Source: a virus. From it: a stretch of 64,000 nucleotides of DNA. This document shows, piece by piece, positions 7,667 to 64,000 of the stretch. The stretch's first letter is position 1, and every line of letters begins with the position of its first letter. Below the pieces are notes generated by a model. It saw nothing but the letters and a program-made list of their open reading frames with translations, made no database searches and was not told the origin of the DNA. Location of the stretch: the IMG/VR virus record IMGVR_UViG_3300050122_000027. One strand, given 5' to 3'. Both the position numbers and the translations under genes were made by a program.

Positions 7667-7707
7667 AAATATCTCCAAGCCAATCAGATATGTTTGTCTC
7701 AATATCC

Positions 7708-7736
7708 ATTGTACCATAATATTCGGCACAATTCAA
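7708..7736 (-). promoter_or_regulatory. sigma70 promoter, extended -10
   Basis: TTGAAT-N17-TACAAT with a TG extension. Confidence 0.7.
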
Positions 7737-7796
7737 GATGTTGCAAATATACTACATCAACATTAAATGATTGGCTTACTTGTTGATTACATAATC

Positions 7797-7824
7797 GAAA
7801 ATGGGGAATCCTTTCGGACTCCCC
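7797..7824 (-). terminator. intrinsic terminator after csrA
   Basis: GGGGAGTCC-GAAA-GGATTCCCC-ATTTT. Confidence 0.65.
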
Positions 7825-7832
7825 ACTCGGGC

Positions 7833-8003
7833 TTACTTTGTTGCCTCATTGATAGCGATTTGGACTTCTTCCCGATGAACCGAAACGTTCTTCGGAGCGT
7901 CGATTCCGATACGAATCCTGTCGCCTCGGATCTCAACAATCGTGATCTTGATACCTCCCGCGATGATGATGGACTCGTCTTTCTTCCGTGACAGCACGAG
8001 CAT
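7833..8003 (-). CDS. csrA: carbon storage regulator CsrA/RsmA
   Basis: MLVLSRKKDESIIIAGGIKITIVEIRGDRIRIGIDAPKNVSVHREEV is canonical CsrA; GGAGAGG RBS. Confidence 0.95.
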   Translation of the reverse strand: MLVLSRKKDESIIIAGGIKITIVEIRGDRIRIGIDAPKNVSVHREEVQIAINEATK

Positions 8004-8019
8004 ATTTGCCTCTCCTAGA

Positions 8020-8538
8020 TTATCCCGATTGCCCAAACCCTTTTCCACCGCGAGCAGTGGCTTCGAAATCTTGACATTCCTCGAGGAGTGGTAGCTCAAC
8101 TCGTTGAATGACAAGTTGTGTAAGTTTCATCCCTTTGGTGATTCGTCGTGCTTGTAAGTGCTGGTGGGGTGCTCCTGAAATCAATGCTAACAAAATAGCA
8201 TTGACATCTACGAATGAGACAACGATCTTGACCTCGTCAGTGTAGCCGTTATCGATGACGCCACCGAGCACTGTGAGACCACTTGCAGCGATTCCACTTT
8301 TGTCCCAAACGAATGCTCCAAGAGTCCAATCAACATTGTATCCACTGTTCCATTGATCATTGAGATCAAGTGTAGGCTGAACACAGATTCCCGTGCGAAT
8401 CGTTTTGACTTCACCTGGGTATATTTCGATCTCTTCAGCCGAGAAGAAATCGATACCTGAATCTGTAGGATGTCTACGATTCGGCATGATGGCATCAGGA
8501 CAATCCGTTGCTCTGTGCCATAGGAGGGTCGTTGCCAT
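8020..8538 (-). CDS. dut: trimeric dUTPase
   Basis: DSGIDF, DKSGIA, GGVIDNGYTDEVKI, TQLVI, RGGKGFGQSG motifs. Confidence 0.9.
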   Translation of the reverse strand: MATTLLWHRATDCPDAIMPNRRHPTDSGIDFFSAEEIEIYPGEVKTIRTGICVQPTLDLNDQWNSGYNVDWTLGAFVWDKSGIAASGLTVLGGVIDNGYTDEVKIVVSFVDVNAILLALISGAPHQHLQARRITKGMKLTQLVIQRVELPLLEECQDFEATARGGKGFGQSG

Positions 8539-8990
8539 TGTCGGTCTCGTAGATTGTGACAAGCGAACTGAGCGTATCAACATACAACTGCTCTAGTGGT
8601 TCAAGATCACCTTTAAGCAATTGTACAACGAGTTTGTTTGCGATTGTTGCTTGAGTCTGATTCTCGATTGGCATAAGCGGACAGGCATCGATGCACTGTG
8701 TCCACGTCATGTTGTTTTGCTCTTTGAAATCAAGGCTCTCTGAACTCTGAAAATAACATATCGACCCGCATAGCACATAGGCTCGCATATGTGTCATTAC
8801 TTGGAACACAATCAATATATGTTCTCACGTAATCCCAAACTTCACTGCGAGTAACAGGCATCATTTCACCATTGCTCTTGGCAACTTGTAACACTTGGAT
8901 CAGGATGTTACGATCAATATGTCTCCTGATCTCGATTGTGAAAAGCCCGTCTTCAAGAACCGGATCTTTTTTGTGTCGTGGCATGTTGTG

Positions 8991-10163
8991 TTAGGGGAGT
9001 TGGAACTTATAATGATCTGCGATCAGTTGAGCAATATCGCTACCCTTCATATTCGAGACTGTATCAACGATTTGATAATCAATATTGGCAGCTTGAATTG
9101 CGGGAGCAATAACATTGTAATTATCTTGTTGTGATTGGCTAGTTTTACCACTGTTGTAGTCTTGTATTTGTTGGTTTGTTTCATACCAACTTTCATCAGC
9201 CGTCCAAAGTCCTGGACCACCACTACCATCTCTAGGTGGTGGTGAAATATCATCGTCATATGTTCCTTGAACATATCCTCCGATGCCTGGAACGTTGAAT
9301 TGTAAGTCTGGCATGTAGATACGAACGCTGTATCCTTTCATGCTTGGAGCAATCGTCGGCAAATTCGCTGTGAAATAACTTGGATAAAGATATGGTGCTG
9401 GTGAATATCCGGCAATAATATGTAGAAAATCCGTTCCATAAAATGTGCTTTGTGGTGGTACAAGCAATCCTGAGAATCCGTAAGTATTATAATAGTCCGA
9501 TCGGAACACCGCTGTATACGCTGGATCTAGTGAATATGGATCTGTTTGACTAAACGGTGAGCAAATATCAACGAATGTAATTCCGGCTCTTGCTGATTCT
9601 ATAATCTGTTTAGCTTCATTGAAGGCATCCAACATGCCTGTGAATTCATCTGTATATGGATTGTCAATCACCCATAGTTGGTCGAATTCTCTTGATCCAT
9701 TATTGTAAAATACACCGTAAGTTGGACCATTTCCGACTTGCGGTGGTATATAATCATAATTATATGAATGTGAATTGAGAATCGATGTTGACGGCGGATC
9801 TTTTGGCCCGAGAACAATACCAAAAGAAGTCCAATCCTCTGTAATAGTTTCAGATGCAGGAAGACTATTTGCTCCAGGATACACGAAACTATATTCTGTA
9901 TATTCTTGATGATATACAATACTATATCCGTACATCACCCAATCGGTTCTTGGATATCCGCTTGGCAAAGCAGTAAGATAAACAACTTGCGGAGCCCGAG
10001 CTGCAAGTGTACCTATTGCTGGCCAACGATTCGGAGCAACATATGGGGTAATACTGGTCGCATAATATGTAGGTTGACCGAGAGTGAGACCTTGTCCTGG
10101 AGCAATATATGAAATCCTATTTCCGTTTAGAAATTTTCTGCGATCATAAATCAAACCGCTCAT
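8991..10163 (-). CDS. hypothetical Tyr/Pro/Thr-rich protein
   Basis: 390 aa ORF coupled to the upstream gene; no family recognised. Confidence 0.6.
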   Translation of the reverse strand: MSGLIYDRRKFLNGNRISYIAPGQGLTLGQPTYYATSITPYVAPNRWPAIGTLAARAPQVVYLTALPSGYPRTDWVMYGYSIVYHQEYTEYSFVYPGANSLPASETITEDWTSFGIVLGPKDPPSTSILNSHSYNYDYIPPQVGNGPTYGVFYNNGSREFDQLWVIDNPYTDEFTGMLDAFNEAKQIIESARAGITFVDICSPFSQTDPYSLDPAYTAVFRSDYYNTYGFSGLLVPPQSTFYGTDFLHIIAGYSPAPYLYPSYFTANLPTIAPSMKGYSVRIYMPDLQFNVPGIGGYVQGTYDDDISPPPRDGSGGPGLWTADESWYETNQQIQDYNSGKTSQSQQDNYNVIAPAIQAANIDYQIVDTVSNMKGSDIAQLIADHYKFQLP

Positions 10164-10624
10164 TGTGTTTTCTCAAATGTTAGTGTAAGAACCAATTCAT
10201 CTTCTTGGAATAGATCCATGTATACATTCAAATACTTTCCATCCGTCTGCAAGATCAATAGTGTAATAGCATTTGTCGTATCGCAACTAATAATACTACC
10301 ACCACGAGCTAATGCTGGTCTTGCAAGATCCGCTGCTAGTGTAGGATTCCTATTGAATTGCAAATGGATCTTGCAATCAGTTTTCTGGCCGTGGTACATT
10401 GATTCTACCTATAATATGATCACTTCCATTCCATGTTTCGATCTTTGTCATCGAACTGTTGTTTCAGTTCGGCATGTCGGGCGTCGCCGTCTTTGGGCTC
10501 AAGGCCACAACCTTTTCGCCAAACTTGATAATCGATTAAGGCTTGGTGTGCCTCTTCACGATTGTTTGCTTCGAGATGTTGCTTGGCGAGAGCAAGAGCT
10601 GTTTCAGGGTCCACGTATTTATCC

Positions 10625-11032
10625 TCAAGTGTTGAGTAATGTAATTTCTTTGACCCACGAGGCACGAAGATCACTTTCTTCAGGAGTAAGAGGATAACTC
10701 CACTTGTGCTCAAGAAATCTAAGCAGAATATCGCATTGCTGTTGTTTGCCAATAAGATGTGGACGAATTGCTTTCAAAAATCCATGAATATCTTTGGCAT
10801 GAACTCGCCAAATGTAATTTCTTTTTCTTCCTGCTATCTTAGTACCTTCTCCAACATTACCGATTCCTGTCACTTTGAGTAAATGCATTAGAATAAGTAA
10901 ATTAGTATTTGAAACCTGTACTACAGGTCGGATACTTAACCCATGCCAATATTTCTTTCGTGATTCTGCAAGTGTAAGTGTACCTTCGCCATCAATCATT
11001 GCCGCTAGATAACCTAAATCAATATCTCGCAT
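10625..11032 (-). CDS. single-motif LAGLIDADG endonuclease
   Basis: LGYLAAMIDGEGTL...VQVSNTN...LIGKQQQ. Confidence 0.85.
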   Translation of the reverse strand: MRDIDLGYLAAMIDGEGTLTLAESRKKYWHGLSIRPVVQVSNTNLLILMHLLKVTGIGNVGEGTKIAGRKRNYIWRVHAKDIHGFLKAIRPHLIGKQQQCDILLRFLEHKWSYPLTPEESDLRASWVKEITLLNT

Positions 11033-11055
11033 ATGATTATTGCAATCTAATATGT

Positions 11056-11071: not shown

Positions 11072-11078
11072 GGCTCGT

Positions 11079-12020: not shown

Positions 12021-12943
12021 TTCCCTACGGTACAGTCCCACTCAAGTAAGGTAATACGTCAAGGGGATTGTAACGGCGGTACGATCCGGTCGTCATCACC
12101 GGACTATGTGGAATTGGAATCGGTACATCGATACTATGATCAACGTATCGGTTCCTCTTCAACATCCAAAAGTAAAGAAGCAGGTCTGCTACGGGTAGCA
12201 TTAGTCACCGTTGCTCTTGCTGGTGCTTGCCACAAGCCGTGGCCGTGGCACCTGATTGTCAAGCAGAAAGAATCGGATCTTCTCAATCGCGATTCGCATT
12301 TCCTCAGAGCCGTCGCCTTTGGAAATATTCAATGAGATGCGACGCTTACCGAAATACAACCGATAGCCGTTGCGGCCGTTCTCATCGATCTCGTTGATAC
12401 GAGATGCTTTGGCGAGGTTGAGATGTTGCCCGTCAAAGCTGATCCAGGAATTCATCTATGTCTCCGAAATAGCTTCCGGCTCACCAAGAGCCATGAATTT
12501 TCCCGCTGTGTCGAAATAATACAGGGTGCCGCGAACGTCTACTTCCCACTTAGCAGGTGAATCCCCTAATCCATCTGCTAATTCTTTACTGTGAAAGTCA
12601 GCACCGGATCTTGCAAGCATATTAACGAAGACATCGTATTCTGACATACTGTTTTCATTCATGGGGTGTTCGCTCATTTGTGGTTCTCAACTCCAAACGA
12701 TTGGCACACTCACGCAACGCCTTAATCACTTCTTTCCGTTGAGCGTTGGAAACATACTGTGTTTCCATATTGTTTTCAAATACAACCAAAGCAAATAGAT
12801 CACCAACAGGAAGAACGCTTTGAATCATTTCCGCGAGGGCTGAGAAATATTTCCTAAGCGTTGGCTCGTCCATTTCCGATAGTGTTTTAGCTTTCGGCTT
12901 GCCATCAGGATTCAACTTATGACGACGCTTTGGACGAGCCATC

Positions 12944-13375: not shown

Positions 13376-15126
13376 AGAAAGCTTTCGCGATCATCTTCAA
13401 TGTTGGCTGCTTCATCCTCGATGACCGCATCTTCGATATTGGCTTGCTCGCGAGCTTCCTGTTCCTCTTCGGTTTCGTTCGCGATTGCTTGTCTCTTGAG
13501 AAGCGTATACATCATGCAAGCAAGTTGTGCTGCACTTGCTGCCGCAACGGGTCCGAAGTTTGTTTCAAAGACCTTGATCGCTTCAGAAAGGAAGTGTGCA
13601 AGGTCTGGTTGATCTTCCTTGATTTCATCAATCCGTGCATGTGTCGCCTTTTCAACATCGAATGGACGAGATGCAGGGTCTACGTAAGCGAGAATAACTT
13701 CTTTGGTGACAACGGGGAGCATATTACCTCATGTCTCTAACGTATGGCAAAGGGTTCCCGAAAGAATAAAGCACGCAATCTGTGGGTCCACCTGAATGAA
13801 CACCCTCATGTTCTTGTGGAATCGGAATGGATTCCTCAAACACGAAAAAGAAGCTGGCGGCTTGAACGAACTTCTTCCATTTGGAATGTGGAAAGCAACG
13901 CTTGCATCCCTTGGAACAATCGTGAATCTTGAGCTTGGAGAAACGCTTGCCCAACTTGAGCAAGATACCGAGTGCCATTTCCTCTGCTTGGAACTTGTTC
14001 CAAACATTGGCAATCACGAGTTCAGTTGGGTCATCGTCATCGAAGCAAATGAACCAAGGGTGTTCAGCCCATGATCCATGAAGGACCGGGTTCTTGTAAT
14101 AGACGCCATCTTCAGCCCGAGCATATGTGGGAACGAGGCTCATAATAATCTCCTTGGCTTGCAATAATCAATTGGAAATAGTATCGTGCTCGACTTTGAC
14201 TAACCTACTATTCTCGTTAAAGTACCACGTAGAATATGACGTGGCACCACGAACTTCTACCTCCCACCGTGCTATGACACGATTGTAGCAATCCCGATGA
14301 TAAAATTCTGCATTACAATTGATAAGCGATTGAATGAAATTTTCAAGTGTCATTGCGTTTCTCATTGGTACTTTGATCGTAGCCAGCCATGATCATGTTA
14401 GCACACCAACCGATGGCTTCATCCTTGGGAATTGAAGGCCATCTTTTTATCAATTCATCTGCCCATTTCTGGGCGTCGGTTCCTAATCGTTGCAACAATT
14501 CGCCACTTGTTTCAATAGTCATATTAGATCCTGATTGGTAAAGACTCTGACCGGTTTCCAAACGGTTCCCGGTTCGCCCGGAATCATTCCACCACAGATT
14601 GTGGTCCAATGATTGCCGCCAACCTTGACCAATAGCTCTGGAAGAACTCTCTTGATTGTCGGAATCACGGGCTCATATACTGTTGTATCGGAGCCAACAT
14701 AAAAGTATAAATGATTGGTGGCATCCCAAAAGTAACCGCGACCCCAAGTGTCCAAAGCATTTTCAGGGAGCTTAAGATGTTCGGCCCATTCCTGGTGGCT
14801 GTTGGCAACATGCCGAATCGTGTAGATGAATCCATTAGGATTCAATAGAAACATTCTTCGATAACCGTGGAATCGTTTAATCTTTTGTTCGATTTCGGTC
14901 ATCTTCTTCTCCAGCGACTTCAACAATCAGAACTTCGATATCACTATCTGATTGAATATCAAACTCTTTTGACAAACAAGCTAATGCTCGTTGTCGAATC
15001 TCTTCAGCCTTGTGGCTGTATAGGTGATGTATACTAACTTCCATTGATACATACACAATCATTGTCAATCCTCCATGATTGCTGCAAACCAATCAGTCTG
15101 TAATATCGATAGACTTCTTAGCCTTT

Positions 15127-15156
15127 ATTGTACCATGAAACCAAATCGGTTGTCAA
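15127..15156 (-). promoter_or_regulatory. sigma70 promoter
   Basis: TTGACA-N18-TACAAT with TG; the TGA stop of 15153..15545 lies inside TTGACA. Confidence 0.75.
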
Positions 15157-16059
15157 CCATTTTCTTTATCGCGGTCTGTTGATTGGCTTATCTTCTCTAC
15201 GAAGCGAATGCAAAGATCCGTTCCCATCCAAAAGTGAACAGCGATGCGAGAATACTTGTCTGCATCGTATCCTCGCTTGGCCAATCCGTTTCTGAAGTGC
15301 TCGAAGAATGACTTCGTGGTCTCATGATAAATAGTGCCACTGTTCCTAATAGGAAAGCCTGTTCTTTCTCGAACAACGTGGCTGATGTGTTCAATGTATG
15401 TATTGTATTGTGCTGTGTTCAATCCACGAACGATTCCTGTGACCAATATTTGTTCAGTTTCAGCATGATCAATATTGTAATACCAATCATAATATTCCTC
15501 TGGATCATAATCCATCTGCAAGCTGAAAATATCGCCGTCATTCATTAGTTCTTCTCGGCGTTGATGGATTGCAAGATCCGAGATCCGTTCAACTGATTGA
15601 TGCCATCAGCAATGTGGCTAAGTAAAGTATGAAGCCACTTGCCTTCTTCATCACTAGCATCTGGAAGTTGTATTGATGATTCCAATCCCCGGCGTGTAAT
15701 CGCAAGTCGAAGTGTCTTACCTTGAAGACGCTTCGGTGCATCGATATCGTTGATTATATAATCGTATTTCATACATACTCCATAGATTTGCGTGCAAGAA
15801 TACGTCGCAAAGGTTCCGGTACTTGGGAAATATGAATCTTCAGAGTTGCCTCTTCATCTGGTGTGTAGTATCTTTGGATTTCTTTTGTTTCTTGATCGTA
15901 GTAATCAATATTGTACCAACCGTTAGAATCACCGCAACTGATGATTCCGAACAACAATTCAATGGGTGCTGAACGTACAAATTCGTTTTTGAAGATGAAG
16001 ATAACAATGTCGCCCATTGACAATTCGTTCTTACTCATGTCAAGCATATTTGATTCCTT

Positions 16060-16120
16060 ATAAGGGTGAGGTATATTCGGGCTTCTCAACGAGAGAAGCC
16101 CGAATATACCTCACCCTTAT
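16060..16120. repeat. perfect 28 bp hairpin, 5 nt loop
   Basis: ataagggtgaggtatattcgggcttctc-aacga-gagaagcccgaatatacctcacccttat. Confidence 0.95.
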
Positions 16121-25539: not shown

Positions 25540-25844
25540 CGGGGCTGAATCAACGTCCGCTGGCACCACGCCGAGGGGTATCGCCGGAGATCAGGAACAC
25601 GTCAGTTGGCTTGACGAAGTTCACGATCAGATCCTTGCCTTCCTCAAGCGGGTTGCGATTCCAGGCTTCGGACAGATTGTCCAAGCATTCCTGAGCGTCG
25701 GCCTCACGCTCGTACTTGAACCAATACATGCGACCGTCCGCATGTTCAATGTGAAAGTAACCCTTGATCTTGACAATCCGCATGCGGCTCATATCGACTC
25801 CCAAGCCAATCAACCCTAGCAATATTTGGAATGGACCGATCTAC

Positions 25845-25874: not shown

Positions 25875-26327
25875 GGCCAGTGTTTCCATTTTGTAACGTC
25901 CTATAAGACGTTCTAACGCATCCTTTGTTTACAGTGTCCTAACGTTCTATCTGCTATGTAAGATAGCTTAAAACGCATCCTAGAACGTCCTAGCGTTAAG
26001 ATAATTTGTACTGTACTTGTTTCGTTCGATTTCGCGACCCATGTCACTGATTGGCTTGCAGCCGTAATTGGATGAAAGATACCAACGCTCATGTTGAGTT
26101 AGATTCTTCAAATCAAAATGAAAAGCAATGCTTCCATAACCAATGTTAATAACATCATTGAACCAATAATGAGCCATTTGATTATTACAAGCGGACGAAT
26201 CAATTTCAATGTAGTATGTTGAATTAAAAAGTCCTATAAGATTACACTTACGGGTTTTACATGCAGATTGTATGAAATTATATTGACTTGGATTCAATTC
26301 TGCAAAACTGATTTTCACAATCATTCT

Positions 26328-30408: not shown

Positions 30409-31473
30409 TCATGCGTCGAATTTCCTAAAAAATCTTCCCTCCTTTGGAATACCTTTGTCTGTCAGCTCACGGTACTTGAACGTGACAATCGTACCCAATG
30501 GAAAAGACAACGCATAATAAGGCATAGGAAGATCCTTGCCTGGATTCTGTCTTGCCCAATCACGAGCCTCATCATTGTTGAGACAACGTTCTTCGTCGGT
30601 GAATCCAGACAACTCGAACCGTTGGCCTTTGTATTCTGTAACCAAAGCTCCCATCATGCCAAGCAGTTTGGAGCCCTTGTCAGTTTCACGGCCAGCGGTG
30701 TAGCCAATCACCTTGGCTTCATCGTCTTCGTAGGTTTTCACCTTGAGGCAATCGTATGTACGAGTGTTTGTCCAAGGTGTTGCATACTTCCGAAGAACGA
30801 GACCCTCACCACCAGCATCAATGACTTGTTCCAGGAGATCATCAATACGTGTCTGTGCATTTGCTGTCCCGAAATCAAGTCGTTCTTGATGCACCAGTTC
30901 AAGATTACGAGATCCAGTCAACTCTTTGCTCAGCCATTTATAGGCTGATTCGAAACTGATGAATGAATCCACCAGTGGTGTTGTGACGTGTTGCTCGTAC
31001 CAATCAAGACATCCTTTGAAAGTCTTACGGTACTGTGGCTCATTGATCGTGCCATCAGCAAACACGATTTGTAATGGCGGTGTGTCAAACACACTGTACA
31101 TGATCTCCGACCATTCGGGGCCGGGGCGATGATGCTTGACAGTGCTCATCACAAACTGTTGTCGTCCAACACCGGCATACAATTCACCATCCAAGGGAAA
31201 CTCAGGAAGTTGATCAAGGAAATCATTCGGTGCATAGATCACTTTGCCGTAACGTGACCACAAGCCTGTTGCGATCGACGTATTGATCAGGCGAGCGTCT
31301 TTTTCAACATTGGCCCAAGGTACGTCATTTGCTTTCATACCTCGGGTAACACCGCCATCAAAGAAGCAACGCATGCCATCGAGTTTCTGACTCACGAACC
31401 ACCCGTTAATGGCATGACGTTTGGGGTCGAACGTGTGTGCAAGTTGAAGAAAGACCCTTTTTGCCATGATCAT
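30409..31473 (-). CDS. ATP-dependent DNA ligase
   Basis: SQKLDGMRC, LDGELY, VFDTP, EGLVLR, LKVK motifs plus OB fold. Confidence 0.92.
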   Translation of the reverse strand: MIMAKRVFLQLAHTFDPKRHAINGWFVSQKLDGMRCFFDGGVTRGMKANDVPWANVEKDARLINTSIATGLWSRYGKVIYAPNDFLDQLPEFPLDGELYAGVGRQQFVMSTVKHHRPGPEWSEIMYSVFDTPPLQIVFADGTINEPQYRKTFKGCLDWYEQHVTTPLVDSFISFESAYKWLSKELTGSRNLELVHQERLDFGTANAQTRIDDLLEQVIDAGGEGLVLRKYATPWTNTRTYDCLKVKTYEDDEAKVIGYTAGRETDKGSKLLGMMGALVTEYKGQRFELSGFTDEERCLNNDEARDWARQNPGKDLPMPYYALSFPLGTIVTFKYRELTDKGIPKEGRFFRKFDA

Positions 31474-31967
31474 TGTTCCTTAATAATGTTCAGGTAAGCG
31501 AATTTACCGAAATATTTCTTTGCTGCAATGTTGTAAGCTGTTGCAGCTTGTTGCTTTGAATAATATGTACCTAAGTATAGATACTTACCGTTGACGGTAA
31601 TCTGTGAAAGATACGTTCCTGATACTGTAAGGTATACTCCTTTGTATCCTGTTGTATTATGTTTTGGTGCAGGGCGATTTGACATATTTTGAGCATGCGT
31701 TGCTTGTCTCAAGTTATGTCTTTGATTGTTCAATCCATTTAAGTCTCTATGATCTATAAGACCATACATTCCAAATGCTTCTGCAATCAATGTATGTAAG
31801 TAAATCATACGCCCTTTTCTATATCTTGTTTCCCCTTTGAACATATTGCGAACCGCATAAATCATATCACCTTTTCGGCAAGCAAACCATCTGTAGTCTT
31901 GTGTAATGTTAGTGTCGATTTCATCAATCAATACTGATTCACCAGAATATAGTCGGAAGCTTACCAT
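31470..31967 (-). CDS. HNH-AP2 homing endonuclease
   Basis: IDHRDLNGLNNQRHNLR; TGYKGV; AATAYNIAA. Confidence 0.85.
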   Translation of the reverse strand: MVSFRLYSGESVLIDEIDTNITQDYRWFACRKGDMIYAVRNMFKGETRYRKGRMIYLHTLIAEAFGMYGLIDHRDLNGLNNQRHNLRQATHAQNMSNRPAPKHNTTGYKGVYLTVSGTYLSQITVNGKYLYLGTYYSKQQAATAYNIAAKKYFGKFAYLNIIKEQ

Positions 31968-32020
31968 GTAAAGCTTGTCCAATCCAATCAAGGGCCAATA
32001 ACAATGTAGCCTTCCTCTTC

Positions 32021-32050
32021 ATTGTACCATAGAAATAATCCGGGTGTCAA
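32021..32050 (-). promoter_or_regulatory. sigma70 promoter
   Basis: TTGACA-N18-TACAAT with TG; the upstream gene's TGA stop lies in TTGACA. Confidence 0.75.
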
Positions 32051-32701
32051 TACGAATCTTCGATTCGTTCCATCGCACTGATTGGATTGGGGATCATAGC
32101 AAGGAATGTAAAGTGATCTCTTGCTTGTGAAAGCTTTGTATGAGGACAAAGATTCTCTGTTGTAATATGTGTAATGTTTTCGATTGTGGTAAGCATTGCA
32201 CGCATTTCAACAACATAGTGTGTCCCGAATGTATTGTTGATCCAACGAACGAAATAATTCCAACCATCTAAGGGAACGAAGTCATTTTCAATCGTTTGAG
32301 TTTTCTTGACTTGTTTGGTTTCGTGAGTTGATTTCGCAATCACTGTGCTCAATTGTACAACAAGTTCATTTGCAGTATGCTCAAAATAAGAATTCAATTC
32401 AACAGGATTGGGAAAACGTAATTGTTCTTCTGAGATACGAACACCAGAATAACAACGAATGCGTTCAATTGCAATATTCACTACACCATTGTCTTTATTC
32501 ATTCTAATATCCTTGGTTTTCCTGTGGTCTCATTCTTCTTACATAGCTGATCGTATAAGCTACAATGTAGTTCAATAACTTTCCAGCCGGATCTTGATAA
32601 TCCAGCCAGCTTCGAAGCAAAGTCGTTCATCGTTGACGCTTGCCCAATCACTTGGGTCGTGCCGAACTCGTCCTTTGCACCGAAGCTGGCCATGAATCTC
32701 C

Positions 32702-37753: not shown

Positions 37754-37802
37754 GCCCAATCCAATCAGGTTGCCGTTCCTTGTTAGAAACACTGGCAAAC
37801 CT

Positions 37803-37832
37803 ATTGTACCATGATTCAGCCCGACCATACAA
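37803..37832 (-). promoter_or_regulatory. sigma70 promoter
   Basis: TTGTAT-N18-TACAAT with TG. Confidence 0.65.
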
Positions 37833-38420
37833 TAGGATTTGCGATAGTGGCCGAATAATGAGAATTAAAAGAAACATGCCAACTATTGATTGGATTATCA
37901 ATCTACATGAATACCTTTTGACTCCAAATAGTTACAATCCATGTAATCGTCCATGATATTGGATTGTAAAAGCTTCTCCGAGATTCGGATTATAAAATTC
38001 CTTTTGAATAATGTCTTGTTGTCGGCAAATTTCTGTCCATTCGGCCATTGTTATCCGGCCTTCAGGTTTGGCTCCTCGACCAAGAATCTCAAGAGCAGTC
38101 TCAACGCCTTTGGATCTTACCAAGCAGCTATTGAATGTTGTGATACATTGCTGACAAGGAAGATTCTCACCGCGATGTAGCTCACAGTATCCTTGGCCCC
38201 AATGCCACTTCTCAGAATCAATCATAGTTGTGGCTTTCGTGTCCGCCAGGTTTCCATCTTTTGCAATTCAGTAATTCGCTCACGCATTTGCTGTACAGTT
38301 GTACAATTCTTACCAGATTCATTGATCTGTTTGAGGTTAGTAAGATGATGCTTGATTGACGCAATCCGATCCTTTGGAATGCGTTCATTCAATTTAGTCA
38401 ACATATCGTCACTTGCCATA

Positions 38421-38990
38421 TTATCTCCGAATGATTGCCACGAGCTTGATACCAGCAGCCTTACAAGCCTGATAACGCATCCAACCGTCAACGAGATAAT
38501 ACTCCTGATCCAAGATCAAGGGCTGTGTGTATTGATGTTCTTGTGCAGAGATCGTACCAGCAGAGAAACTGGCCCTTCGATCCTTCTGACTTGGACGAAT
38601 CCGAATCATCTCAATATCAATGACTTCAACTCGCTGTCGATTGGCAGGAGCAATCTTTTGACAATCGAGACAAGTGCGAACGGTAGTTGGACCAATCATC
38701 TCAAGCGTCGTGTGCTTGATCTGTTTGCAATTTTCGCATTGCTCGTTGTCACGCGGAACCCATTCATCTGGCATATCACACCTAATAATTGGGACGTAAG
38801 TGATACCTGATTCTAAATAGGCTCGATACCGCATCCAGCCTGCAATAAGATTGTACTTGTCATCGATCGTAATAGGAAGCGGTGTTGTTAAAATAGTTTG
38901 CTTTATGCGTTCAAGATCCGCATAAATTTGTCTTCTTTCGCTTCTACGTTTGTGAATTCGGATTCTTGAAATAAGTATGTATTCGATCAT
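38421..38990 (-). CDS. tandem ParB-like domain protein with central Cys pairs
   Basis: PITIDDKYNLIAGWMRY.A and PLILDQEYYLVDGWMRY.A, separated by CENC...CLDC. Confidence 0.65.
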   Translation of the reverse strand: MIEYILISRIRIHKRRSERRQIYADLERIKQTILTTPLPITIDDKYNLIAGWMRYRAYLESGITYVPIIRCDMPDEWVPRDNEQCENCKQIKHTTLEMIGPTTVRTCLDCQKIAPANRQRVEVIDIEMIRIRPSQKDRRASFSAGTISAQEHQYTQPLILDQEYYLVDGWMRYQACKAAGIKLVAIIRR

Positions 38991-54588: not shown

Positions 54589-55419
54589 TCAGGACAGCGG
54601 GGACAAAGCTTCTTTTGGAACTTCATAGGGGACGCTCTTCTCCTGGGCGAGTGTCTTGATATCACCGAAAAGATCCGAATCGGCGATCTCTCCGGCTGCC
54701 CACGCAAGACATCGTGTTCCCATGTTGTTGCCGACACTTTCCCGAATGTGATCCATCATGAGAAAAATCTCCTGACGATCACGAAGCTTCCGGGTCGAGG
54801 CTGGCCGCTTGATCGGTTCCTTGATCTTGATCTTCTCTCCCCGTTCTTTTCCTTCTTTGATCTTGCGAACAGCCTCGAACTGCTTCTCCTTGTTCCCGAG
54901 GGTGTAGAGATCCCGGATCTGCTGTTGAGAAAGCAAACCCCCGGCCGCTTCAACCTGGATCTCGGTGGGCAGTGTCAGCACGTAATAACGAATCTGAACC
55001 CAGCCACGCGACTGGTGCAAATCCGCCGCGACCTGCTCCTGTGTCATACCCGCTATATACAGCTTCTCAAGAGCCTTGGCCTCTTGAACGATGTTGAGAT
55101 CCTTGCGAGCAAGATTCTCGTCCAAGTTCATCAACCGAGCCTGGATATCCGTAAGGCCCACAACAATGTTACAAGGTGCAACTGGCTTCTCCAAAAGCTG
55201 GAGCGCCTTGAACCTTCTGTATCCACTGATGAGTCGGTACTTGAACCCCGTTTTGGCTTGGGCTGCTTCGTCGTAGGGCTGAATAACGAGAGCGTTCTGC
55301 AACTGATTCGCATCAATACTTCGGGCGAGGTCAACGACATCGATTGGAGCGATCACTCCGCGACAGTTGAAGTCACTGTCAGCGTGGATCTCACCAAGCG
55401 GAATATCCTTCACATCCAT
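54589..55419 (-). CDS. ParB/Spo0J-like protein
   Basis: LARSI...LQNALVI...YRLISGYRRF.A...NLDENLARKDL...HTH. Confidence 0.8.
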   Translation of the reverse strand: MDVKDIPLGEIHADSDFNCRGVIAPIDVVDLARSIDANQLQNALVIQPYDEAAQAKTGFKYRLISGYRRFKALQLLEKPVAPCNIVVGLTDIQARLMNLDENLARKDLNIVQEAKALEKLYIAGMTQEQVAADLHQSRGWVQIRYYVLTLPTEIQVEAAGGLLSQQQIRDLYTLGNKEKQFEAVRKIKEGKERGEKIKIKEPIKRPASTRKLRDRQEIFLMMDHIRESVGNNMGTRCLAWAAGEIADSDLFGDIKTLAQEKSVPYEVPKEALSPLS

Positions 55420-55476
55420 AGCATACTCCCAAGCCAATCAATAGGTGAGGTAAATTCGCATTTCACCTCATACCTT

Positions 55477-55506
55477 ATACTACGGCAAAAGGTGAAAATT
55501 TTGAAG
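55477..55506 (-). promoter_or_regulatory. phage promoter, class CTTCAAA-N-TTTGCCG-TARKAT
   Basis: TTCAAA-N17-TAGTAT; same design at 63351 and 63713. Confidence 0.75.
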
Positions 55507-56367
55507 CCGACTCTGTTTGTTGATTGGATTGCGGCAATCAGAGCGAGTCTCGCTCAGATTGTGCAATCGGTTCCAGCATACGGTCAATAGCTGGGCCGAG
55601 AACGATCATAATACGGTCGGTGATTGATCTTGCAATCGACGACCGGACCTCGGCAGCAATCTTTACAACGAGTAACTCGTCCCTAAGTTCTAGTTCCGAC
55701 GTTGTGATTGTGGTCACAATCGTCCTATCCATAGGTCGATGAAACGATGAAACATCCATTTAGTTTCTCGATGGTTCTAATTTAATCATAAGATCCGGTC
55801 GTTGTGCTTCAAGACACCGTATCGTATGATAAGCTAATTCCAACTGTCGTTTCTGTAACTCCACTAATTCTTCAAGTTCTACCTCGCGAGACTTTGTATC
55901 GAACAACCAGGCCAACATTATTTTAGTCCGGCAAGTTTGCCCCTTATATCAGCGGCAAGTTCGGGATAATCAACTTCACATGATTTTGCATATTCCTCAA
56001 GTGCATGTCGAGCATGAACATCATGTGTTCCGTCCAAAACAAATAAAAAGCAATTGCAATGCTTCTTACCTGCAAGGTCCGCACCATCATTCCGAATCAC
56101 TGTGTACTTTGCGTACAGACCTTTCGGGGTATCCATTGCGACGCTCTTGTCTTAGAATTGTAATTGCATTACGCACAGCGGCACGATTAGTCTTGTCATA
56201 ACCTAAATCGAAACATTTTGTTCCGACATAGATTCGATAAGCACCAAATGAGTATTCCTCACTGTAGCAATCTTGTGGACAATCAGAATTCGATCCCACC
56301 AATCCGATATTCGGATCAATGGTTGTTTCAATTGTCAACAAAGATCCACAGATCGGACAGAACATAT

Positions 56368-60450: not shown

Positions 60451-60830
60451 GCCGATTGAGCAAGCCGAAGCTTCTTGAAATTTGTACAAGGTGTTCTGCC
60501 GAAGCAGTTCAGCAATGTTCAAGATTCCAAGTAATCTCTCAATCAGCCGTTTGACCTTGCGACCAAACGTCGCTACCGTCGATTCAACGATAACGATAAT
60601 CAATTGGCATCCCGCACACCACAATCGGGATTAGTCTTGCACCGGCTTTACATGGTAACATATATGAGTTACCTCATATACGCTTAGCCGATTCAGATTT
60701 CAGTGATCCGATCGTAAGATCGAATACTGGAATCCTATGCCTTCCCAACTGATATCAAGTGGTAAGAAGCAACAGCTCATTTATTGAGCCAATCCTCCGA
60801 AGAGGGTTCGCCAAAACTACTTCCCACCAT
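60451..60830 (-). ncRNA. structured RNA domains with UUCG/GNRA tetraloops
   Basis: GCTGATTGAG/CTCAATCGGC; CTGC-TTCG-GCAG; AAGC-TTCG-GCTT; CCTC-TTCG-GAGG; TATATGAG-GTAA-CTCATATA; 13 bp TGGTGGGAAGTAG/TTGCTTCTTACCA. Confidence 0.6.
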
Positions 60831-60831
60831 C

Positions 60832-60929
60832 AGGGATCGCTGGAATTGAACCAGTCTTTCGTCCTTGGAAAATAGATCCTCAGAGAGGCTAATTCCAAGT
60901 TCGACGTGCAGCCGTTACACCGCAATCCC
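60832..60929 (-). ncRNA. tRNA scaffold with extended anticodon arm
   Basis: GGGATTG/CGATCCC; CTGG-TTCAATT-CCAG; CTTGGAA/TTCCAAG capped by CCTC-TCT-GAGG. Confidence 0.6.
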
Positions 60930-60932
60930 AAA

Positions 60933-61045
60933 GGCCCAGCCAGGTTACGAGCCTGATGTGTCACTAATGATTGTATTGAGTCTACGTCTCGTAAACACAG
61001 ACTGTGCAATCATTCCGACACCGCTAGGCCATGTAAGGGCCGGGC
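60933..61045 (-). ncRNA. divergent tRNA-like scaffold with extended anticodon arm
   Basis: GCCCGGC/GCTGGGC; CAGG-CTCGTAA-CCTG; AATGATTG/CAATCATT; AGTCTG/TAGACT. Confidence 0.45.
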
Positions 61046-61286
61046 ATAATAAGATTTACCGAATATTCTCGCATCGTAAGATGGGAGACATCCGACAGTG
61101 ATCTACAAAGTGTTCCGGCCCCGCACACCGTTGAACGTTTCCGTAACGGGTACTAGTGATTACCGAAGGCCGATTTGGCAATCACCTTCCGACTTCACAA
61201 CGACTTGGCCCGTTGCTGTCATCGGAATCCACACGCCACCGATCAAGATGACGTGCAGCCGGTTCGGTCACTAAGACCGTTCCAAA

Positions 61287-61553
61287 TTACGAAGGTGGAA
61301 CCTGCTTGGACGGTTGAGCCGGATAGCCCATCGGCATTTGCTGGCCGGATGGCATCGGAGCTTGTCCGACCGGGCCGGTGTACGAGTACGTCAACGTCTC
61401 ATACCCACTGCAAGGAGCCATTTGCATCTGACCCTTGCAAGCCTGCTTGGCTGCTCTCTTGGCGGCTTTCGCAGCCTTGTGGCACTTGCCAGCCTCAGCC
61501 GGAAGTGACATCGCAATCAAGGCCACGAAAGCAAGTAGCATCCGAATCATCAG
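61287..61553 (-). CDS. small exported protein
   Basis: MIRMLLAFVALIAMSLPAEA signal peptide; ATGA overlap with the upstream gene. Confidence 0.6.
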   Translation of the reverse strand: MMIRMLLAFVALIAMSLPAEAGKCHKAAKAAKRAAKQACKGQMQMAPCSGYETLTYSYTGPVGQAPMPSGQQMPMGYPAQPSKQVPPS

Positions 61554-62218
61554 CGAGCCCTCGTACTCCCGGCCGCTTCCGGTGCCTGCTCGACCACCGT
61601 CTCGGGCGGAGAGAGAAACGTCTTGGTGACATCTGCAATCTCTCCGAGATCCGGGATCTCGAAGGGTGTCGAGCAGTCCTTGCAGACGGGTCCGTGCCAC
61701 GAGTAGGAGGTGTTCTTGATGAGCTTGACGCTCAGCGAGGCCGCTTTGCCAAGCAGTGCCTTGACGTTCGGGGCTTCTCGCCGGGCTGTCTTCGAGCCCA
61801 TCAGGAAGGTCGCGAACTTCTGGACCTTGGGAAGGTAGACGAGGTACTCTGGTCCGTACATGCACCCCGAATTCGGCTGGTCAGCTCGCTCTTGAAGCTT
61901 CTGAAAAGCGGGCGAGTCGGGATTGTGATAAGCGACGACCGGATCGGAGCCCGTATCGATCGCCTTCGGACGCCACTGAATCACCAACACGTCCACTTCC
62001 GCTCCGAGATCGATCACGTCCTTGTCCTTGACAAGTCCGTAGTGACCCATTGGGAAGGTTCCCTCCTTCACCGCATCGGAATTGCTTCCGAAAAGCTGAA
62101 GTCGAGGAAGGTAGTTGGCAGCGGCGGCAATCTTGGCGAACGCCTTCTCGTCATACGGATTCGCCGCGACGGGAATCAGTGCTCCAGGAGCAGCAACCGG
62201 CTCGATGTCAGACATCAT
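61550..62218 (-). CDS. conserved phage protein, possible ssDNA-binding protein
   Basis: YLPRLQL...WRPKAI...GPEYLV..P; position in the replication module; function inferred. Confidence 0.4.
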   Translation of the reverse strand: MMSDIEPVAAPGALIPVAANPYDEKAFAKIAAAANYLPRLQLFGSNSDAVKEGTFPMGHYGLVKDKDVIDLGAEVDVLVIQWRPKAIDTGSDPVVAYHNPDSPAFQKLQERADQPNSGCMYGPEYLVYLPKVQKFATFLMGSKTARREAPNVKALLGKAASLSVKLIKNTSYSWHGPVCKDCSTPFEIPDLGEIADVTKTFLSPPETVVEQAPEAAGSTRAR

Positions 62219-62284
62219 GTTCCTCAATGAAAATGATCATGAAAAGCGGCTGGCCCACCATTGAACCAGCCTTCCCCTGTTGGA

Positions 62285-63250
62285 TCAGGCCGTCACGAGA
62301 TCGGCCTTCGTCTCGGCCGCAGCGTTCGCCTTCGCGGCCTCACGATCCGCCTTACGTTGAGCCTTGACCTCTTCATCCTTCTTGCGTCGGTCGGCGTCCT
62401 TCTGGCGATCCGCTTCGATGGACATCGAATCCATATGAAGCGTCCAGGCAACGCCCGTCTTGAACCCTTCGAGAGCCGTTGTCAGTCCGAGTTCGGCGAC
62501 CAGTCGCGGGCCGACCTCATTCTGCTCGAACTCTGTCTTGATTTCGCCAAGCTTCCGGCAGTGCGGAACCGGCATGAACTCAGCGGCGTTCGGATTCCGA
62601 CCTTGACGCTTGGCGTCGCGAAGTTCTTTGACGCGGGTATTGACGGTCGGAACGAACTCGTTCGGCTGCATTGTCATCGCACGATCGACGAAGTGTGCTT
62701 GCTCATCAGCAGGCAGCTTCGCCAAAGCGTAGGCGTTGGACAAGTTGATCTTGTCCTCATCCACCAGCTTGGCGATGCGGGCTTCGAGCTTGATTAGCCC
62801 AAGCCGTTCAGAGATCCAGGTCGGCGACTTGGCCAACTTGGTCGCCAAAGACGCAGCGGTCATGGTCGGGTTGCCCGCCAGAATCCGCATGAGCTGCTTG
62901 CTGTACTCGACTGGCCGAGTCTCGACCTTGTGGATGTTCGTGATGATCTGGGCTTCGAGGACTTCGGCGTCGCTTGCCTCAATCACGTTGGCCGGGATCT
63001 CAGTCAGTCCAGCGTCGAGCGCTCCGGTGAATCGGTGCAGGCCGTCGATCAAGCCGTAAGTGATGTTACCATCACTGTCCTTGATCTCACGGACGACGAC
63101 CGGATTCAGCACGCCCTTGGCCCGGATTGAATCCACCAATCCGAGGTAGTCTTCGGCCGTCTTGTTGACGTTCCGTAGAGCGGAAGGGTTCTCCCGAATC
63201 TGCGAAAGTTGGACAACTTTCGGTCGCGTCTTCGGGGTTGTACTTGCCAT
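62285..63250 (-). CDS. ParB/Spo0J-like protein
   Basis: LVDSIRAKGVLNPVVVR...YGLIDGLHRF..A...I.A.V...N. Confidence 0.85.
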   Translation of the reverse strand: MASTTPKTRPKVVQLSQIRENPSALRNVNKTAEDYLGLVDSIRAKGVLNPVVVREIKDSDGNITYGLIDGLHRFTGALDAGLTEIPANVIEASDAEVLEAQIITNIHKVETRPVEYSKQLMRILAGNPTMTAASLATKLAKSPTWISERLGLIKLEARIAKLVDEDKINLSNAYALAKLPADEQAHFVDRAMTMQPNEFVPTVNTRVKELRDAKRQGRNPNAAEFMPVPHCRKLGEIKTEFEQNEVGPRLVAELGLTTALEGFKTGVAWTLHMDSMSIEADRQKDADRRKKDEEVKAQRKADREAAKANAAAETKADLVTA

Positions 63251-63350
63251 ACTGGCCACTCCTAATTTGCTTGCCGCAATCCTCATTGGTTGGCGTTGAA
63301 AGGAATACGCAATCCAATCAATCGTCGAGCCCTGCTGACACTTTCACTCT

Positions 63351-63380
63351 ATCTTACGGCAAAGGGCCGAAAGTTTGAAG
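63351..63380 (-). promoter_or_regulatory. phage promoter, class CTTCAAA
   Basis: TTCAAA-N17(..TTTGCCG)-TAAGAT. Confidence 0.75.
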
Positions 63381-63498
63381 GCCAGTTTTCTCCGAATGCC
63401 GGATTAATTATCTTGCCTATTCTACTGACTCAGCCTAGATTACCATTTCGACGTAACCCTATACCTGAAAACAACTTACGGCAAATGTCTTACTAGCC

Positions 63499-63632
63499 GC
63501 GTTTCAATTGCTCTATAAGGATGATATAGGGTTTTCCTTTAAAGTCTCCTTATGGATGACTTTAAAAAAGTAATCAGAGAATAAGCGTAAGTCTATATCC
63601 CACAACACATATCAAATATCACCTACATGATT
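63499..63632. repeat. block-conserved inverted repeat, right copy
   Basis: Reverse complement of 4191-4326; lies between divergent promoters. Confidence 0.9.
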
Positions 63633-63712
63633 GTAGTCAGTCAGTAATCAATCAACATATACACAGTCACTTATGGTTGTAACTCGTTATCCTATATAGG
63701 GTTAAAATTCAC

Positions 63713-63741
63713 TTCAAACTTACCGCATTTTGCCGTAGGAT
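63713..63741 (+). promoter_or_regulatory. phage promoter, class CTTCAAA (divergent)
   Basis: TTCAAA-N17(..TTTTGCCG)-TAGGAT. Confidence 0.75.
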
Positions 63742-64000
63742 AGGATAGCCGACCATAGTACGACGTTGTACAGAATGATTGGCTTGGATGATTGCGTAAG
63801 CCAATCAAGATGGCTTATGTAATCAATTATATAACGGATTGGAAGATCATGTTCGGTACATACGCTGTCATTATTGGTACACGTACACGCATCACAGACG
63901 ATCTGACACAAGCAAAGAAGTGGCTTGCACAATCAGGTGAGGCCGGACTTTATCGTCTGATTTGTAATACAAAAGACCACTATTGGGGCCTCAAGCCGAA

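Follow-up and report, generated by a model that had tools for sequence, protein, structure and literature searches.

The C1 repressor of phage P1 acts at asymmetric 17-bp operators that are dispersed over the genome. GalR with HU loops the operators at −60.5 and +53.5 in the E. coli gal repressosome, and in the P1 ParB–parS system one flexible ParB dimer bridges motifs termed box A and box B that lie on two arms. The known sites of ParB, KorB and Noc are palindromic. In the KorB regulon of the IncP-1 plasmid RK2, KorB slides from its operator and is locked by KorA (PMC11790492).

Here, we describe a 10-base word, TGATTGGMTT, pairs of which bracket about ten promoters in the replication-gene arm of an uncultured phage from peat with a 110-kb genome, of which a stretch of 64,000 nucleotides (the window) was analysed. 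Similarly to the KorB regulon, a short word recurs at many promoters across a mobile replicon that codes for HTH-bearing CTPases of the ParB family, sites lie beside the core promoter, and the regulator's own genes would be among the targets if the candidate phage binder is the right one. The KorB operator is, however, a 13-bp palindrome that is usually single per promoter, whereas the phage word is, unlike the sites of ParB, KorB and Noc, non-palindromic and is paired ~100 bp apart; moreover, the KorB system has KorA, whereas no KorA or ParA partner was seen in the phage and its ParB binder is a candidate. With P1 C1 the phage shares an asymmetric monomer-type word at many promoters of one genome, as expected for joint control, but P1 is temperate, C1 maintains lysogeny and its operators overlap promoters without forming flanking pairs, and no C1-like protein was detected in the phage. 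The gal operators, like the phage pairs, lie on both sides of the promoter, ~100 bp apart and outside the polymerase footprint; in gal, the operators are palindromic, serve just one cellular operon and repress by being bridged, whereas the phage has the 10-mer at ~ten promoters and looping is suggested by the geometry. The P1 boxes are likewise short and asymmetric, are flexible in orientation and spacing and are bridged at a distance, a likeness that holds if the candidate binder does, while parS is one IHF-bent centromere that serves partition and not promoter control. Finally, T4-type promoter–stem-loop cassettes are likewise small promoter units that recur at gene junctions in a lytic phage, but they are proposed recombination modules at variable regions, whereas the phage boxes hold stable positions and repeat only their 10-bp arms.

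The window contains 21 exact matches to TGATTGGMTT against 0.76 expected, a count reached in 0 of 100 shuffles and in agreement with the roughly 21 copies listed in the initial annotation. Because one-mismatch forms (17) are only at about chance level, the word is sharply defined; the sole exception is the variant at 15086 (TGATTGGTTT), the partner of 15180. Seven close pairs are present (7677/7768, 15086/15180, 31981/32079, 37758/37887, 43534/43635, 46446/46548 and 55431/55521), with start-to-start spacings of 91, 94, 98, 129, 101, 102 and 90 bp, respectively. These are the seven boxed pairs of the initial annotation, whose coordinates are 1–3 nt off because flanking bases were included; its six spacings of ~90–105 bp stand (90–102 bp), while the seventh, given as 131 bp, is 129 bp. 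In a permutation test, 0.09 (−,+) neighbours at 85–135 bp were expected and at most three arose in 100,000 trials, against the seven observed, and hence the genome-wide scan and spacing statistics that had been proposed as a check gave a highly non-random outcome for copies and pairs alike. The earlier list can be extended by three wider pairs around longer control regions, 6839/7142 (303 bp), 25803/26048 (245 bp) and 63311/63776 (465 bp), by an everted pair at 63776/63798 and by a lone copy at 3606. All word copies in the 59-kb minus-strand gene arm fall in (−,+) pairs, this inverted layout being found in 10/10 pairs, and the word is absent from a further 43.8 kb of genome beyond the window, which comprises the primase arm, tail genes, terminase and late genes. 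The word is restricted to one arm of the phage genome, which we count in favor of an operator. The features are as follows, each box being given by its two copies, or arms, and named by their coordinates.

3606..3615, plus strand: lone exact copy, near the 3' border of the minus-strand gene arm
6839..6848, minus strand: sense (downstream) arm of wide box 6839/7142, ahead of a 77-aa ORF
7073..7081, minus strand: extended −10 (TGCTACAAT) inside wide box 6839/7142, followed by a leader of ~225 nt
7142..7151, plus strand: antisense (upstream) arm of box 6839/7142
7677..7686, minus strand: sense arm, abutting GGAG-N6-ATG of the HNH endonuclease gene (7178-7666)
7708..7736, minus strand: sigma70-like promoter, TTGAAT-17-TG-n-TACAAT
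7768..7777, plus strand: antisense arm of the 7677 box, centre ~−71.5
15086..15095, minus strand: sense arm, one-mismatch variant
15127..15156, minus strand: sigma70-like promoter, TTGACA-18-TACAAT with extended −10 TG, 11/12 hexamer positions
15180..15189, plus strand: antisense arm, within the 3' end of the upstream gene (15153-15545)
25803..25812, minus strand: sense arm, abutting GGGAG-N5-ATG of an 80-aa ORF
26048..26057, plus strand: antisense arm of the wide (245 bp) box, which also contains TAGGAC-type repeats
31981..31990, minus strand: sense arm, ahead of an HNH-AP2 gene (31470-31967) and a ligase gene
32021..32050, minus strand: sigma70-like promoter, TTGACA-18-TACAAT with extended −10 TG
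32079..32088, plus strand: antisense arm, within the 3' end of gene 32047-32502
37758..37767, minus strand: sense arm, ahead of the HNH / UvrD-helicase operon
37803..37832, minus strand: promoter with exact TGGTACAAT
37887..37896, plus strand: antisense arm of the 129-bp box, centre ~−95.5
43534..43543, minus strand: sense arm; orthologous arm at 12164 in relative L001
43574..43603, minus strand: promoter, TTGAAT-18-TACACT with extended −10 TG
43635..43644, plus strand: antisense arm, 1 nt from the upstream gene's stop codon
45240..45926, minus strand: phage sigma-factor-like gene (weak Sigma70_r2 and r4 matches; PHROG sigma factor), second gene behind 46446/46548
46446..46455, minus strand: sense arm, ahead of a 135-aa gene and the sigma-like gene; orthologous boxes in L001, L233, L310, L287, L312 and others
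46492..46521, minus strand: promoter with TGATACAAT, −10 kept in L001
46548..46557, plus strand: antisense arm, 2-nt overlap with the upstream gene's stop codon
54589..55419, minus strand: ParB1, ParB/Noc-type CTPase and candidate binder (HTH_ParB, GYRRFKA and ENLARKDLN motifs)
55431..55440, minus strand: sense arm, abutting GGGAG-N6-ATG of ParB1
55477..55506, minus strand: ParB1 promoter region of TTGCCGTAGTATAAGGT type, conserved in relatives
55521..55530, plus strand: antisense arm of the ParB1 box
62285..63250, minus strand: ParB2 (ParB_N and HTH_ParB), head of the gene arm in all relatives examined
63311..63320, minus strand: sense arm, ahead of ParB2, the first gene of the minus-strand gene arm
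63776..63807: everted pair TGATTGGCTT-N12-AAGCCAATCA, on the far side of the divergent control region and facing the DUF5906 primase arm

On the transcribed strand, the boxes read stop codon, antisense arm (~−68), −35/−10, 5'UTR hairpin, sense arm (~+28), Shine-Dalgarno and ATG. The arm centres, at ~−65 to −72 and +20 to +35, lie just beyond the region that RNA polymerase would cover, and according to the gene calls the copies at 15180 (15179 in the initial annotation) and 32079 do fall within coding sequence, in the last 10–14 codons of the upstream genes. The earlier placement of a promoter between the paired copies holds for all seven close pairs: six enclose a −35 and an extended −10 element (TGnTACAAT-type) on the coding (minus) strand, and the 55431 pair encloses a promoter of a different kind, the TTGCCGTAGTATAAGGT type. 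All strongly predicted extended −10 promoters in the intergenic gaps of the gene arm are boxed, and a comparable promoter is found in 0/17 unboxed gaps. Thus, as in a dispersed operator regulon, the word is over-represented and concentrated at promoters, all its copies in the gene arm flanking one. Behind these promoters lie, among others, the two conserved ParB genes and the operons of the phage sigma factor, the polymerase, the ligase and the helicase.

In L001 (75% polA identity), both arms are kept at three orthologous promoters, while between them only the −10 and the 5'UTR hairpin survive and the rest has diverged; the L001 hairpin has a different sequence and still pairs. Such conservation of sites at orthologous promoters amid diverged DNA, again a property of dispersed operator regulons, indicates that the arms are under purifying selection. 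In more distant relatives, the word is replaced by one-step variants, TGATTTGATT, TGCTTGGATT (the word of L319) or 16-bp palindromes with the half-site TGATTG, which flank promoters ~100 bp apart, above all those of sigma-factor and ParB genes. In ~1.06 Mb of relatives, TGATTTGATT has 79 copies against 3.7 expected, 72% of them intergenic although intergenic DNA makes up 15% of the sequence; it lies ≤450 bp upstream of the sigma-like gene in 13 of 42 relatives, and neighbouring copies cluster 89–121 bp apart around sigma70-like promoters in −+, +−, ++ and −− orientations. L002 and L318 have the word TGCNCNGCTCTT in the same architecture as the window, the L233 junction that corresponds by orthology to 46446/46548 carries 16-bp palindromes (TTGATTGYRCAATCAA), and the divergent control region of ParB2 in relatives contains compact palindromes (1-, 4-, 5- and 12-bp spacers) and 18-bp direct arrays. 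A layout kept to this extent in related phages suggests that a phage regulator most likely docks at the word.

We consider it probable that TGATTGGMTT is the operator word of a phage-encoded, sequence-specific DNA-binding regulator. Of the two interpretations in the initial annotation, DNA-level control by a phage factor is the better supported, because the arms are conserved while the interiors diverge and because the relatives' words flank promoters in any orientation and also form compact palindromes; the other, a portable cassette, is not supported. In our model, one factor would switch the boxed operons together, and protein bound at both arms might be bridged across the ~100-bp promoter segment. 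The site downstream of the promoter points to repression or timed shut-off, in which the ParB genes would regulate themselves and the sigma factor would be gated; alternatively, the upstream site may serve activation. Since the sigma-like gene (45240-45926) lies behind the most conserved box, 46446/46548, it appears to be a target of control rather than a likely binder. The box system would then be an elegant variation on an established type of control. Several observations count against the operator: the word lacks the palindromic form of known ParB, KorB and Noc sites, a simple operator needs neither the strictly inverted arms of all ten window pairs nor a sense arm directly next to the Shine-Dalgarno, the 90–102 bp spacings show no phasing with the DNA helix, and exact TGATTTGATT pairs are absent from most relatives at 50–58% identity.

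The inverted arms and the position of the sense arm would be accounted for by an RNA-level device, in which the arms pair in read-through transcripts and close the intergenic unit into a stem ending at the Shine-Dalgarno. Translation or processing of the first gene would then depend on whether its mRNA arises by read-through or from the boxed promoter, the upstream arm being missing in the latter case. Its appeal lies in the 10/10 inverted pairs and in the sense arm in the 5'UTR, 10–13 nt upstream of the ATG in at least five boxes and likewise in L001, L002 and L239; minimum-free-energy folds also pair the arms in 7/7 units (z −2.1 to −5.4), as follows from their complementarity itself. Compensatory changes that keep the pairing were, however, found neither among the window pairs, where the variable position does not covary between arms (~5/10 pairs match), nor between the window and L001, where a downstream arm changed from C to A with its partner unchanged. 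Moreover, complementarity ends at the 10-mer, a stem needs no identical sequence at each site, L287 and L312 have their downstream arm ~50 nt away from the ATG, the boxes match no Rfam family, and the direct-orientation boxes, 1–5-bp-spacer palindromes and direct arrays of relatives cannot work as stems, making this device improbable. The direct-orientation boxes speak equally against invertible promoter switches flipped by a site-specific recombinase (invertons), for which the inverted repeats flanking the promoters would be suited. No integrase or resolvase family was found among Pfam hits to gene calls over ~99 kb and 21 larger ORFs in the first 9 kb, two assemblies (contigs only) are identical and in the same orientation at the four boxes compared, and arms of 10 bp around an interior of ~80 bp are shorter than those known for invertible segments; we give this explanation next to no credence.

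Portable or recombinogenic cassettes, consisting of a promoter with 10-bp terminal inverted repeats and spreading or shuffling genes in the manner of MITEs or T4-type modules, would explain why the arms lie exactly at the edges of the intergenic unit (stop codon and Shine-Dalgarno) and why 3/10 boxes head HNH homing-endonuclease genes. The ParB1, sigma-operon and ParB2 boxes have no HNH gene, however, and boxes lie at the same junctions in phages with 50–75% polymerase identity, where a MITE-like element would have variable sites. Their interiors are non-homologous (48% mean column identity, from promoter elements only), no flanking direct repeats of the kind left by target-site duplication were found by eye, no transposase or recombinase was found, and 10 bp is insufficient for homologous recombination, so that such cassettes are very unlikely. 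Altogether, the evidence argues against an RNA stem, an invertible switch and a mobile cassette. A host nucleoid-associated protein or global regulator recruited by the phage to its early promoters would fit the host-type, sigma70-like boxed promoters, the phage binder itself being a candidate. We nevertheless find it quite unlikely, given that the word differs among close relatives (window versus L002, L319 and L311), that a single word family spans phages of peat, saline lakes, sediments and sludge with 35–62% GC, and that the word is by eye unlike the IHF consensus.

For the operator reading, ParB1, a conserved ParB-type CTPase, is tentatively the leading candidate binder. Three HTH-bearing ParB-like genes are present in the phage, and both conserved ParB genes lie directly behind boxes. 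ParB1 has, as a ParB–parS clamp would, the CTPase fold with GxxRxxA and an HTH; its CTP-binding motifs are intact, and it matches Myxococcus ParB at E 9e-13 (ParB2, E 1e-16). The recognition helix of ParB1 is conserved among phages whose words are a single step apart, and L311, whose word is unrelated, has a different helix. Between the window and L002 or L318, however, the helix is almost unchanged despite clearly different words, so that covariation of helix and word is weak, and it is also confounded with phylogeny; in ParB2, the helix is variable among phages with the same word. No ParA-type partner (ParA, CbiA or AAA_31) was found among Pfam hits to the same ~99 kb of gene calls and 21 larger ORFs. 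By analogy to P1 ParB and its boxes, a flexible ParB1 dimer could bridge sites in any orientation. We also speculate, while considering it unlikely, that a ParB-type CTP clamp has its loading site split into half-sites flanking each promoter, such that closure of the dimer over ~100 bp cages the promoter; in a lytic phage, a partition-type protein would then act as the master switch for the early genes and for the phage's own sigma factor. The palindromic loading site of ~16 bp expected for ParB–parS is not seen in the window, and palindromic forms of the word occur only in L233, L277, L312 and L258, where, under such a split-site clamp, the compact palindromes would represent the unsplit ancestral site.

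The word TGATTGGMTT is present in 21 exact copies in the window, where 0.76 are expected, in agreement with the roughly 21 copies that the initial annotation had described, and its one-mismatch forms are at chance level with the sole exception of 15086. Within the large minus-strand replication arm, every copy belongs to a pair in which the minus-strand copy comes first. Seven of these pairs are tight, with spacings of 90-129 bp, where random placement predicts 0.09; the seven inverted pairs proposed to flank promoters are confirmed, and a motif scan with spacing statistics finds enrichment and pairing to be strongly non-random. The word is absent from the 43.8 kb of genome sequence retrieved from outside the window. 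The other word copies are:

three wider pairs, spacing 245, 303 and 465 bp
63776/63798, an everted pair
3606, a lone copy

We refer to two word copies (arms) that bracket one promoter as a box. On the coding strand, a boxed promoter has the following order:

antisense arm (AAKCCAATCA)
spacer of 25-50 nt
-35 hexamer
spacer of 17-18 nt
extended -10
21-36 nt, usually with a small hairpin
sense arm
G(G)GAG immediately after the sense arm, with the start codon 5-8 nt on

The extended -10 is exactly TGGTACAAT in four boxed units. On the assumption that transcription starts 7 nt past the -10, the upstream arms are centred at -64.5 to -72.5 (-95.5 in one unit) and the downstream arms at +19.5 to +34.5, barely beyond the DNA expected to be covered by a bound RNA polymerase. 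The antisense arm adjoins, overlaps or sits within the 3' end of the preceding gene, and the two arms therefore form the borders of an intergenic unit. Between 9 and 64 kb, the word is found in 8 of the 25 intergenic gaps of at least 60 bp, and all gaps with a strongly predicted extended -10 promoter are among these eight. Because the promoter-like sequence inside the boxes of the two ParB-like genes ParB1 and ParB2 is of a different kind (TTGCCGTA type), and is also conserved in relatives, the box is independent of promoter type.

Several smaller elements accompany the boxes. The word TTGCCGTARG (55479-55488, 63353-63362, 63475-63484 and 63730-63739) recurs in the promoter regions of ParB1 and ParB2 and in that of the opposite primase arm; GCCGTAAGGTA is retained upstream of ParB1 in the related loci L002, L318 and L319, and the form in L001 is more diverged. 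TTGCCGTARG may be an additional operator or else represent a second promoter class, perhaps one used by the phage sigma factor. The hairpin between the -10 and the sense arm at 46456-46491 has a counterpart at 10010-10056 of L001 that differs in sequence and retains the pairing, and similar 5'UTR hairpins are found in other boxes. The exact 14-mer TAGGACACTGTAAA lies on the minus strand at 7031-7044 and 25928-25941 inside two wide boxes, which also hold further TAGGAC/AGGACGTT-type repeats, and the 6839/7142 box has a leader of ~225 nt; these repeats may constitute a second set of operators or a small structured RNA.

The boxed units, ten in all, head the following genes:

62285-63250, minus strand, ParB2, the first gene of the replication arm
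54589-55419, minus strand, ParB1, then the polymerase
a 135-aa gene behind box 46446/46548, then the sigma-like gene (45240-45926, minus strand)
an HNH-AP2 gene, then the ligase
an HNH gene, then the UvrD helicase
another HNH gene
in the remaining units, several small genes without known function

The window represents 64 kb of a ~110-kb phage contig twice assembled from peat metagenomes, of which all but ~2 kb was viewed via its own proteins. In the sequencing-run listing, the phage is carried by three contig sets only, all from peat metagenomes, and no RNA run is listed as containing it. Genes are on the minus strand nearly throughout ~4.8 to 63.3 kb of the window, an arm devoted to replication and nucleotide metabolism (family A DNA polymerase, SNF2 and UvrD helicases, class II ribonucleotide reductase, ThyX, ligase, dUTPase and nucleases) that is interrupted by HNH or HNH-AP2 endonuclease genes, of which the window has at least 11. 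The window also contains four ParB-like genes and one divergent sigma-factor-like gene. Past the window, the opposite arm is short (DUF5906 primase, Dam-type methylase and a MazZ-like domain protein) and is followed by tail, head and terminase genes. The phage has no near match in the phage database, the polymerase query found no match in viral_contigs, and the polymerase shares no more than 23% identity with those of database phages, leaving no close cultured relative. Polymerase homologues in metagenomes number more than 1,900 at E <= 0.001, the best 120 being 50-75% identical; the phage is a member of a large uncultured clade with genome sizes of ~90-140 kb. The other enriched word, TGATTATTCC, is unrelated: TGATTATTCC(AATC) lies on the minus strand at eight gene junctions from 18088 to 40813, where it is a stop/start overlap followed by the common N-terminus (M-I-I-P-I) of HNH endonuclease paralogues.

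In L001, the locus of a relative with a 75% identical polymerase, the same word and architecture occur at three orthologous promoters, with arms that match the word exactly or are one step away. Between the arms, the two phages differ almost totally except for the -10 and the 5'UTR hairpin, which has a different sequence with pairing retained. More widely, the word differs among relatives by single steps and the architecture is constant at the ParB1 and sigma-operon promoters:

TGATTTGATT, many distant relatives, L239 and one arm of L001
TGATTGGMTT, the window and L001
TGCTTGGATT, L319
TGCNCNGCTCTT, more distant, L002 and L318

In ~1.06 Mb of relatives' DNA, TGATTTGATT has 79 copies against 3.7 expected, 72% of them intergenic although intergenic DNA makes up 15%, and in 13 of 42 relatives it lies at most 450 bp upstream of the sigma-like gene. 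Its pairs are 89-121 bp apart with a sigma70-like promoter between, and all four orientation combinations are seen, including direct repeats in L273, L244 and L292. Screens of 80 relatives for exact 9-mer or 8-mer inverted pairs were too strict and missed most boxes, which word counts recovered. Two pattern scans for spaced arm pairs in viral_contigs, and a literature search on the words themselves, returned only single chance matches and unrelated matches, respectively. In the divergent control region ahead of ParB2, relatives have word palindromes with spacers of 1, 4, 5 or 12 bp, at the position equivalent to that of the everted pair 63776/63798; in L277 this region holds three direct word copies at 18-bp intervals. 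At the junction orthologous to 46446/46548, the L233 promoter is surrounded by five 16-bp palindromes whose half-site is TGATTG. Other relatives have abundant 9-12-mers of their own (L255, L257, L272, L281, L284 and L297), and throughout the 15-kb locus L311 a GAATCTAGTAGAGTC-type 14-mer occurs ~35 times in both orientations, within genes too, a density far above that of an operator set.

This comparative evidence decides between the possible readings of the word. Three observations point to a trans-acting factor that reads the sequence: all sites of a given genome carry one exact word, the word persists while the DNA around it diverges, and from genome to genome it changes stepwise with its positions fixed. 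Protein operators typically show arrangements such as the short-spacer palindromes, direct arrays and boxes in direct orientation. Because the word family spans widely differing habitats and GC contents and close relatives can differ, a phage-encoded rather than a host factor is favoured. We therefore read the motif as a putative operator of a phage regulator. A role of the word in promoter recognition by the phage sigma factor was rejected: no second conserved element lies at a fixed distance, the late region has no copies, and half of the copies would fire antisense.

Formation of an RNA stem by the two arms would account for two features that the operator model does not need, namely that the window keeps strictly to the inverted orientation and that the sense arm lies next to the Shine-Dalgarno sequence, and the boxed units do fold with their arms paired. 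Against this, pairing is confined to the 10-mer, its variable position shows no covariation, and the palindromes, arrays and direct-orientation boxes of relatives cannot form stems, arguing against a general function of this kind; a secondary RNA role may exist in the sub-clade of the window. The direct-orientation boxes also contradict the idea that the boxes are invertons, as do the palindromes and arrays, which cannot serve as inversion substrates, and the lack of a recombinase among Pfam matches of the ~99 kb of gene calls and of 21 larger ORFs in the first 9 kb. The two assemblies are identical at the boxes compared; as contigs, they carry no information on inversion, starts or ends. Finally, the portable promoter cassette that the initial annotation had entertained is contradicted by orthologous positions that are stable and interiors that are non-homologous.

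In our model of the putative operator, the phage regulator would co-ordinate the early/replication-arm promoters, including those of the ParB genes and the sigma-factor operon, and might do so by bridging two sites across the promoter. Bridging is suggested by the constant ~100 bp spacing and by sites just beyond the polymerase footprint; because spacings of 90-102 bp show no phasing with the DNA helix, a flexible bridge fits better than a rigid loop. Of the DNA-level control proposed earlier, operator-type control is supported by conserved arms and stepwise word change, and looping or bridging is something we infer from geometry. For the downstream arm, a position of +20 to +35 is suggestive of repression; the upstream arm positions are also like those of class I activators.

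Which protein might bind the word? Three of the phage's ParB-like proteins bear an HTH, and their recognition helices differ. ParB1, which adjoins the polymerase in 60 relatives' loci and carries the CTP-binding signatures of true ParB, Noc and KorB clamps, is a tentative candidate, with a chance that we rate well short of even. Its recognition helix SRGW-V/I-Q-V/I-R is retained where the word differs by single steps, differs in L311 with its unrelated 14-mer, and is near-identical in L002 and L318 despite a clearly different word, all three comparisons being confounded with phylogeny. The ParB2 helix is variable among phages with one common word. The third ParB-like gene (453-1517), whose helix is unlike those of ParB1 and ParB2, lies within 46-nt inverted repeats (417-462/1524-1569, 89% complementary). 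The 221-aa protein encoded after ParB2 (61550-62215, minus strand) was set aside as a binder: its confident model (pLDDT 88.6) has only weak matches, all to OB-fold ssDNA-binding proteins such as T4/RB69 gp32 (E 0.03-0.2), and this conserved protein is probably the phage SSB. Also set aside were the 135-aa protein behind box 46446, which has no family match and is limited to a sub-clade, and small conserved ORFs around the polymerase, which matched no regulator family. No further regulator families were detected among the phage proteins examined; because many small phage proteins have no assignment, an undetected small repressor is quite possible.

The closest working likeness is to dispersed operator regulons, such as those of KorB of RK2 (PMC11790492) and C1 of P1, and the box geometry is similar to that of the gal repressosome. 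Membership in ParB-parS is undemonstrated, as the word is non-palindromic and its ParB binder a candidate; no ParA partner was found among Pfam matches of the ~99 kb of gene calls and the 21 larger ORFs of the first 9 kb. What is new is how strictly the bracketing geometry is repeated and that, in a large uncultured clade, it is linked to ParB-type CTPases and a phage sigma factor. The boxes provide a ready map of early and middle phage promoters and point to a regulon that places replication operons, two ParB-type CTPases and a phage sigma factor under one word, and their unusual geometry (~-68/+28) offers a clean test bed for control of a bacterial promoter by bracketing sites. If a ParB binds, it would be a further ParB-family CTPase acting as a transcription regulator, beside KorB, VirB and BisD; if an ordinary small repressor binds, the system would be tidy and unsurprising.

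A 189-aa protein (38421-38990, minus strand) with a faint ParB N-domain match and no HTH recalls the ParB activators of phage thymine dioxygenases, which are without a DNA-binding domain (PMC13229309). As an explanation of the ParB-like proteins at large this system was rejected on account of that missing domain, and no dioxygenase family was seen. The primase arm past the window encodes a protein with a dGTP_diPhyd_N (MazZ-like) domain (L313 3927-4661, on the same contig) and, at 2514-3674 of L313, a D12-class adenine methylase of 386 aa; a PurZ-like gene was not found, and a modified-base pathway is only hinted at. A perfect 28-nt inverted repeat with a 5-nt loop (16060-16120) occupies the intergenic gap beside the tRNA region. 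Lastly, a 121-nt inverted repeat (4171-4291/63532-63652, 77% complementary) brackets the entire 59-kb minus-strand arm, indicating that the divergent control region is partly duplicated at the far end of the arm.
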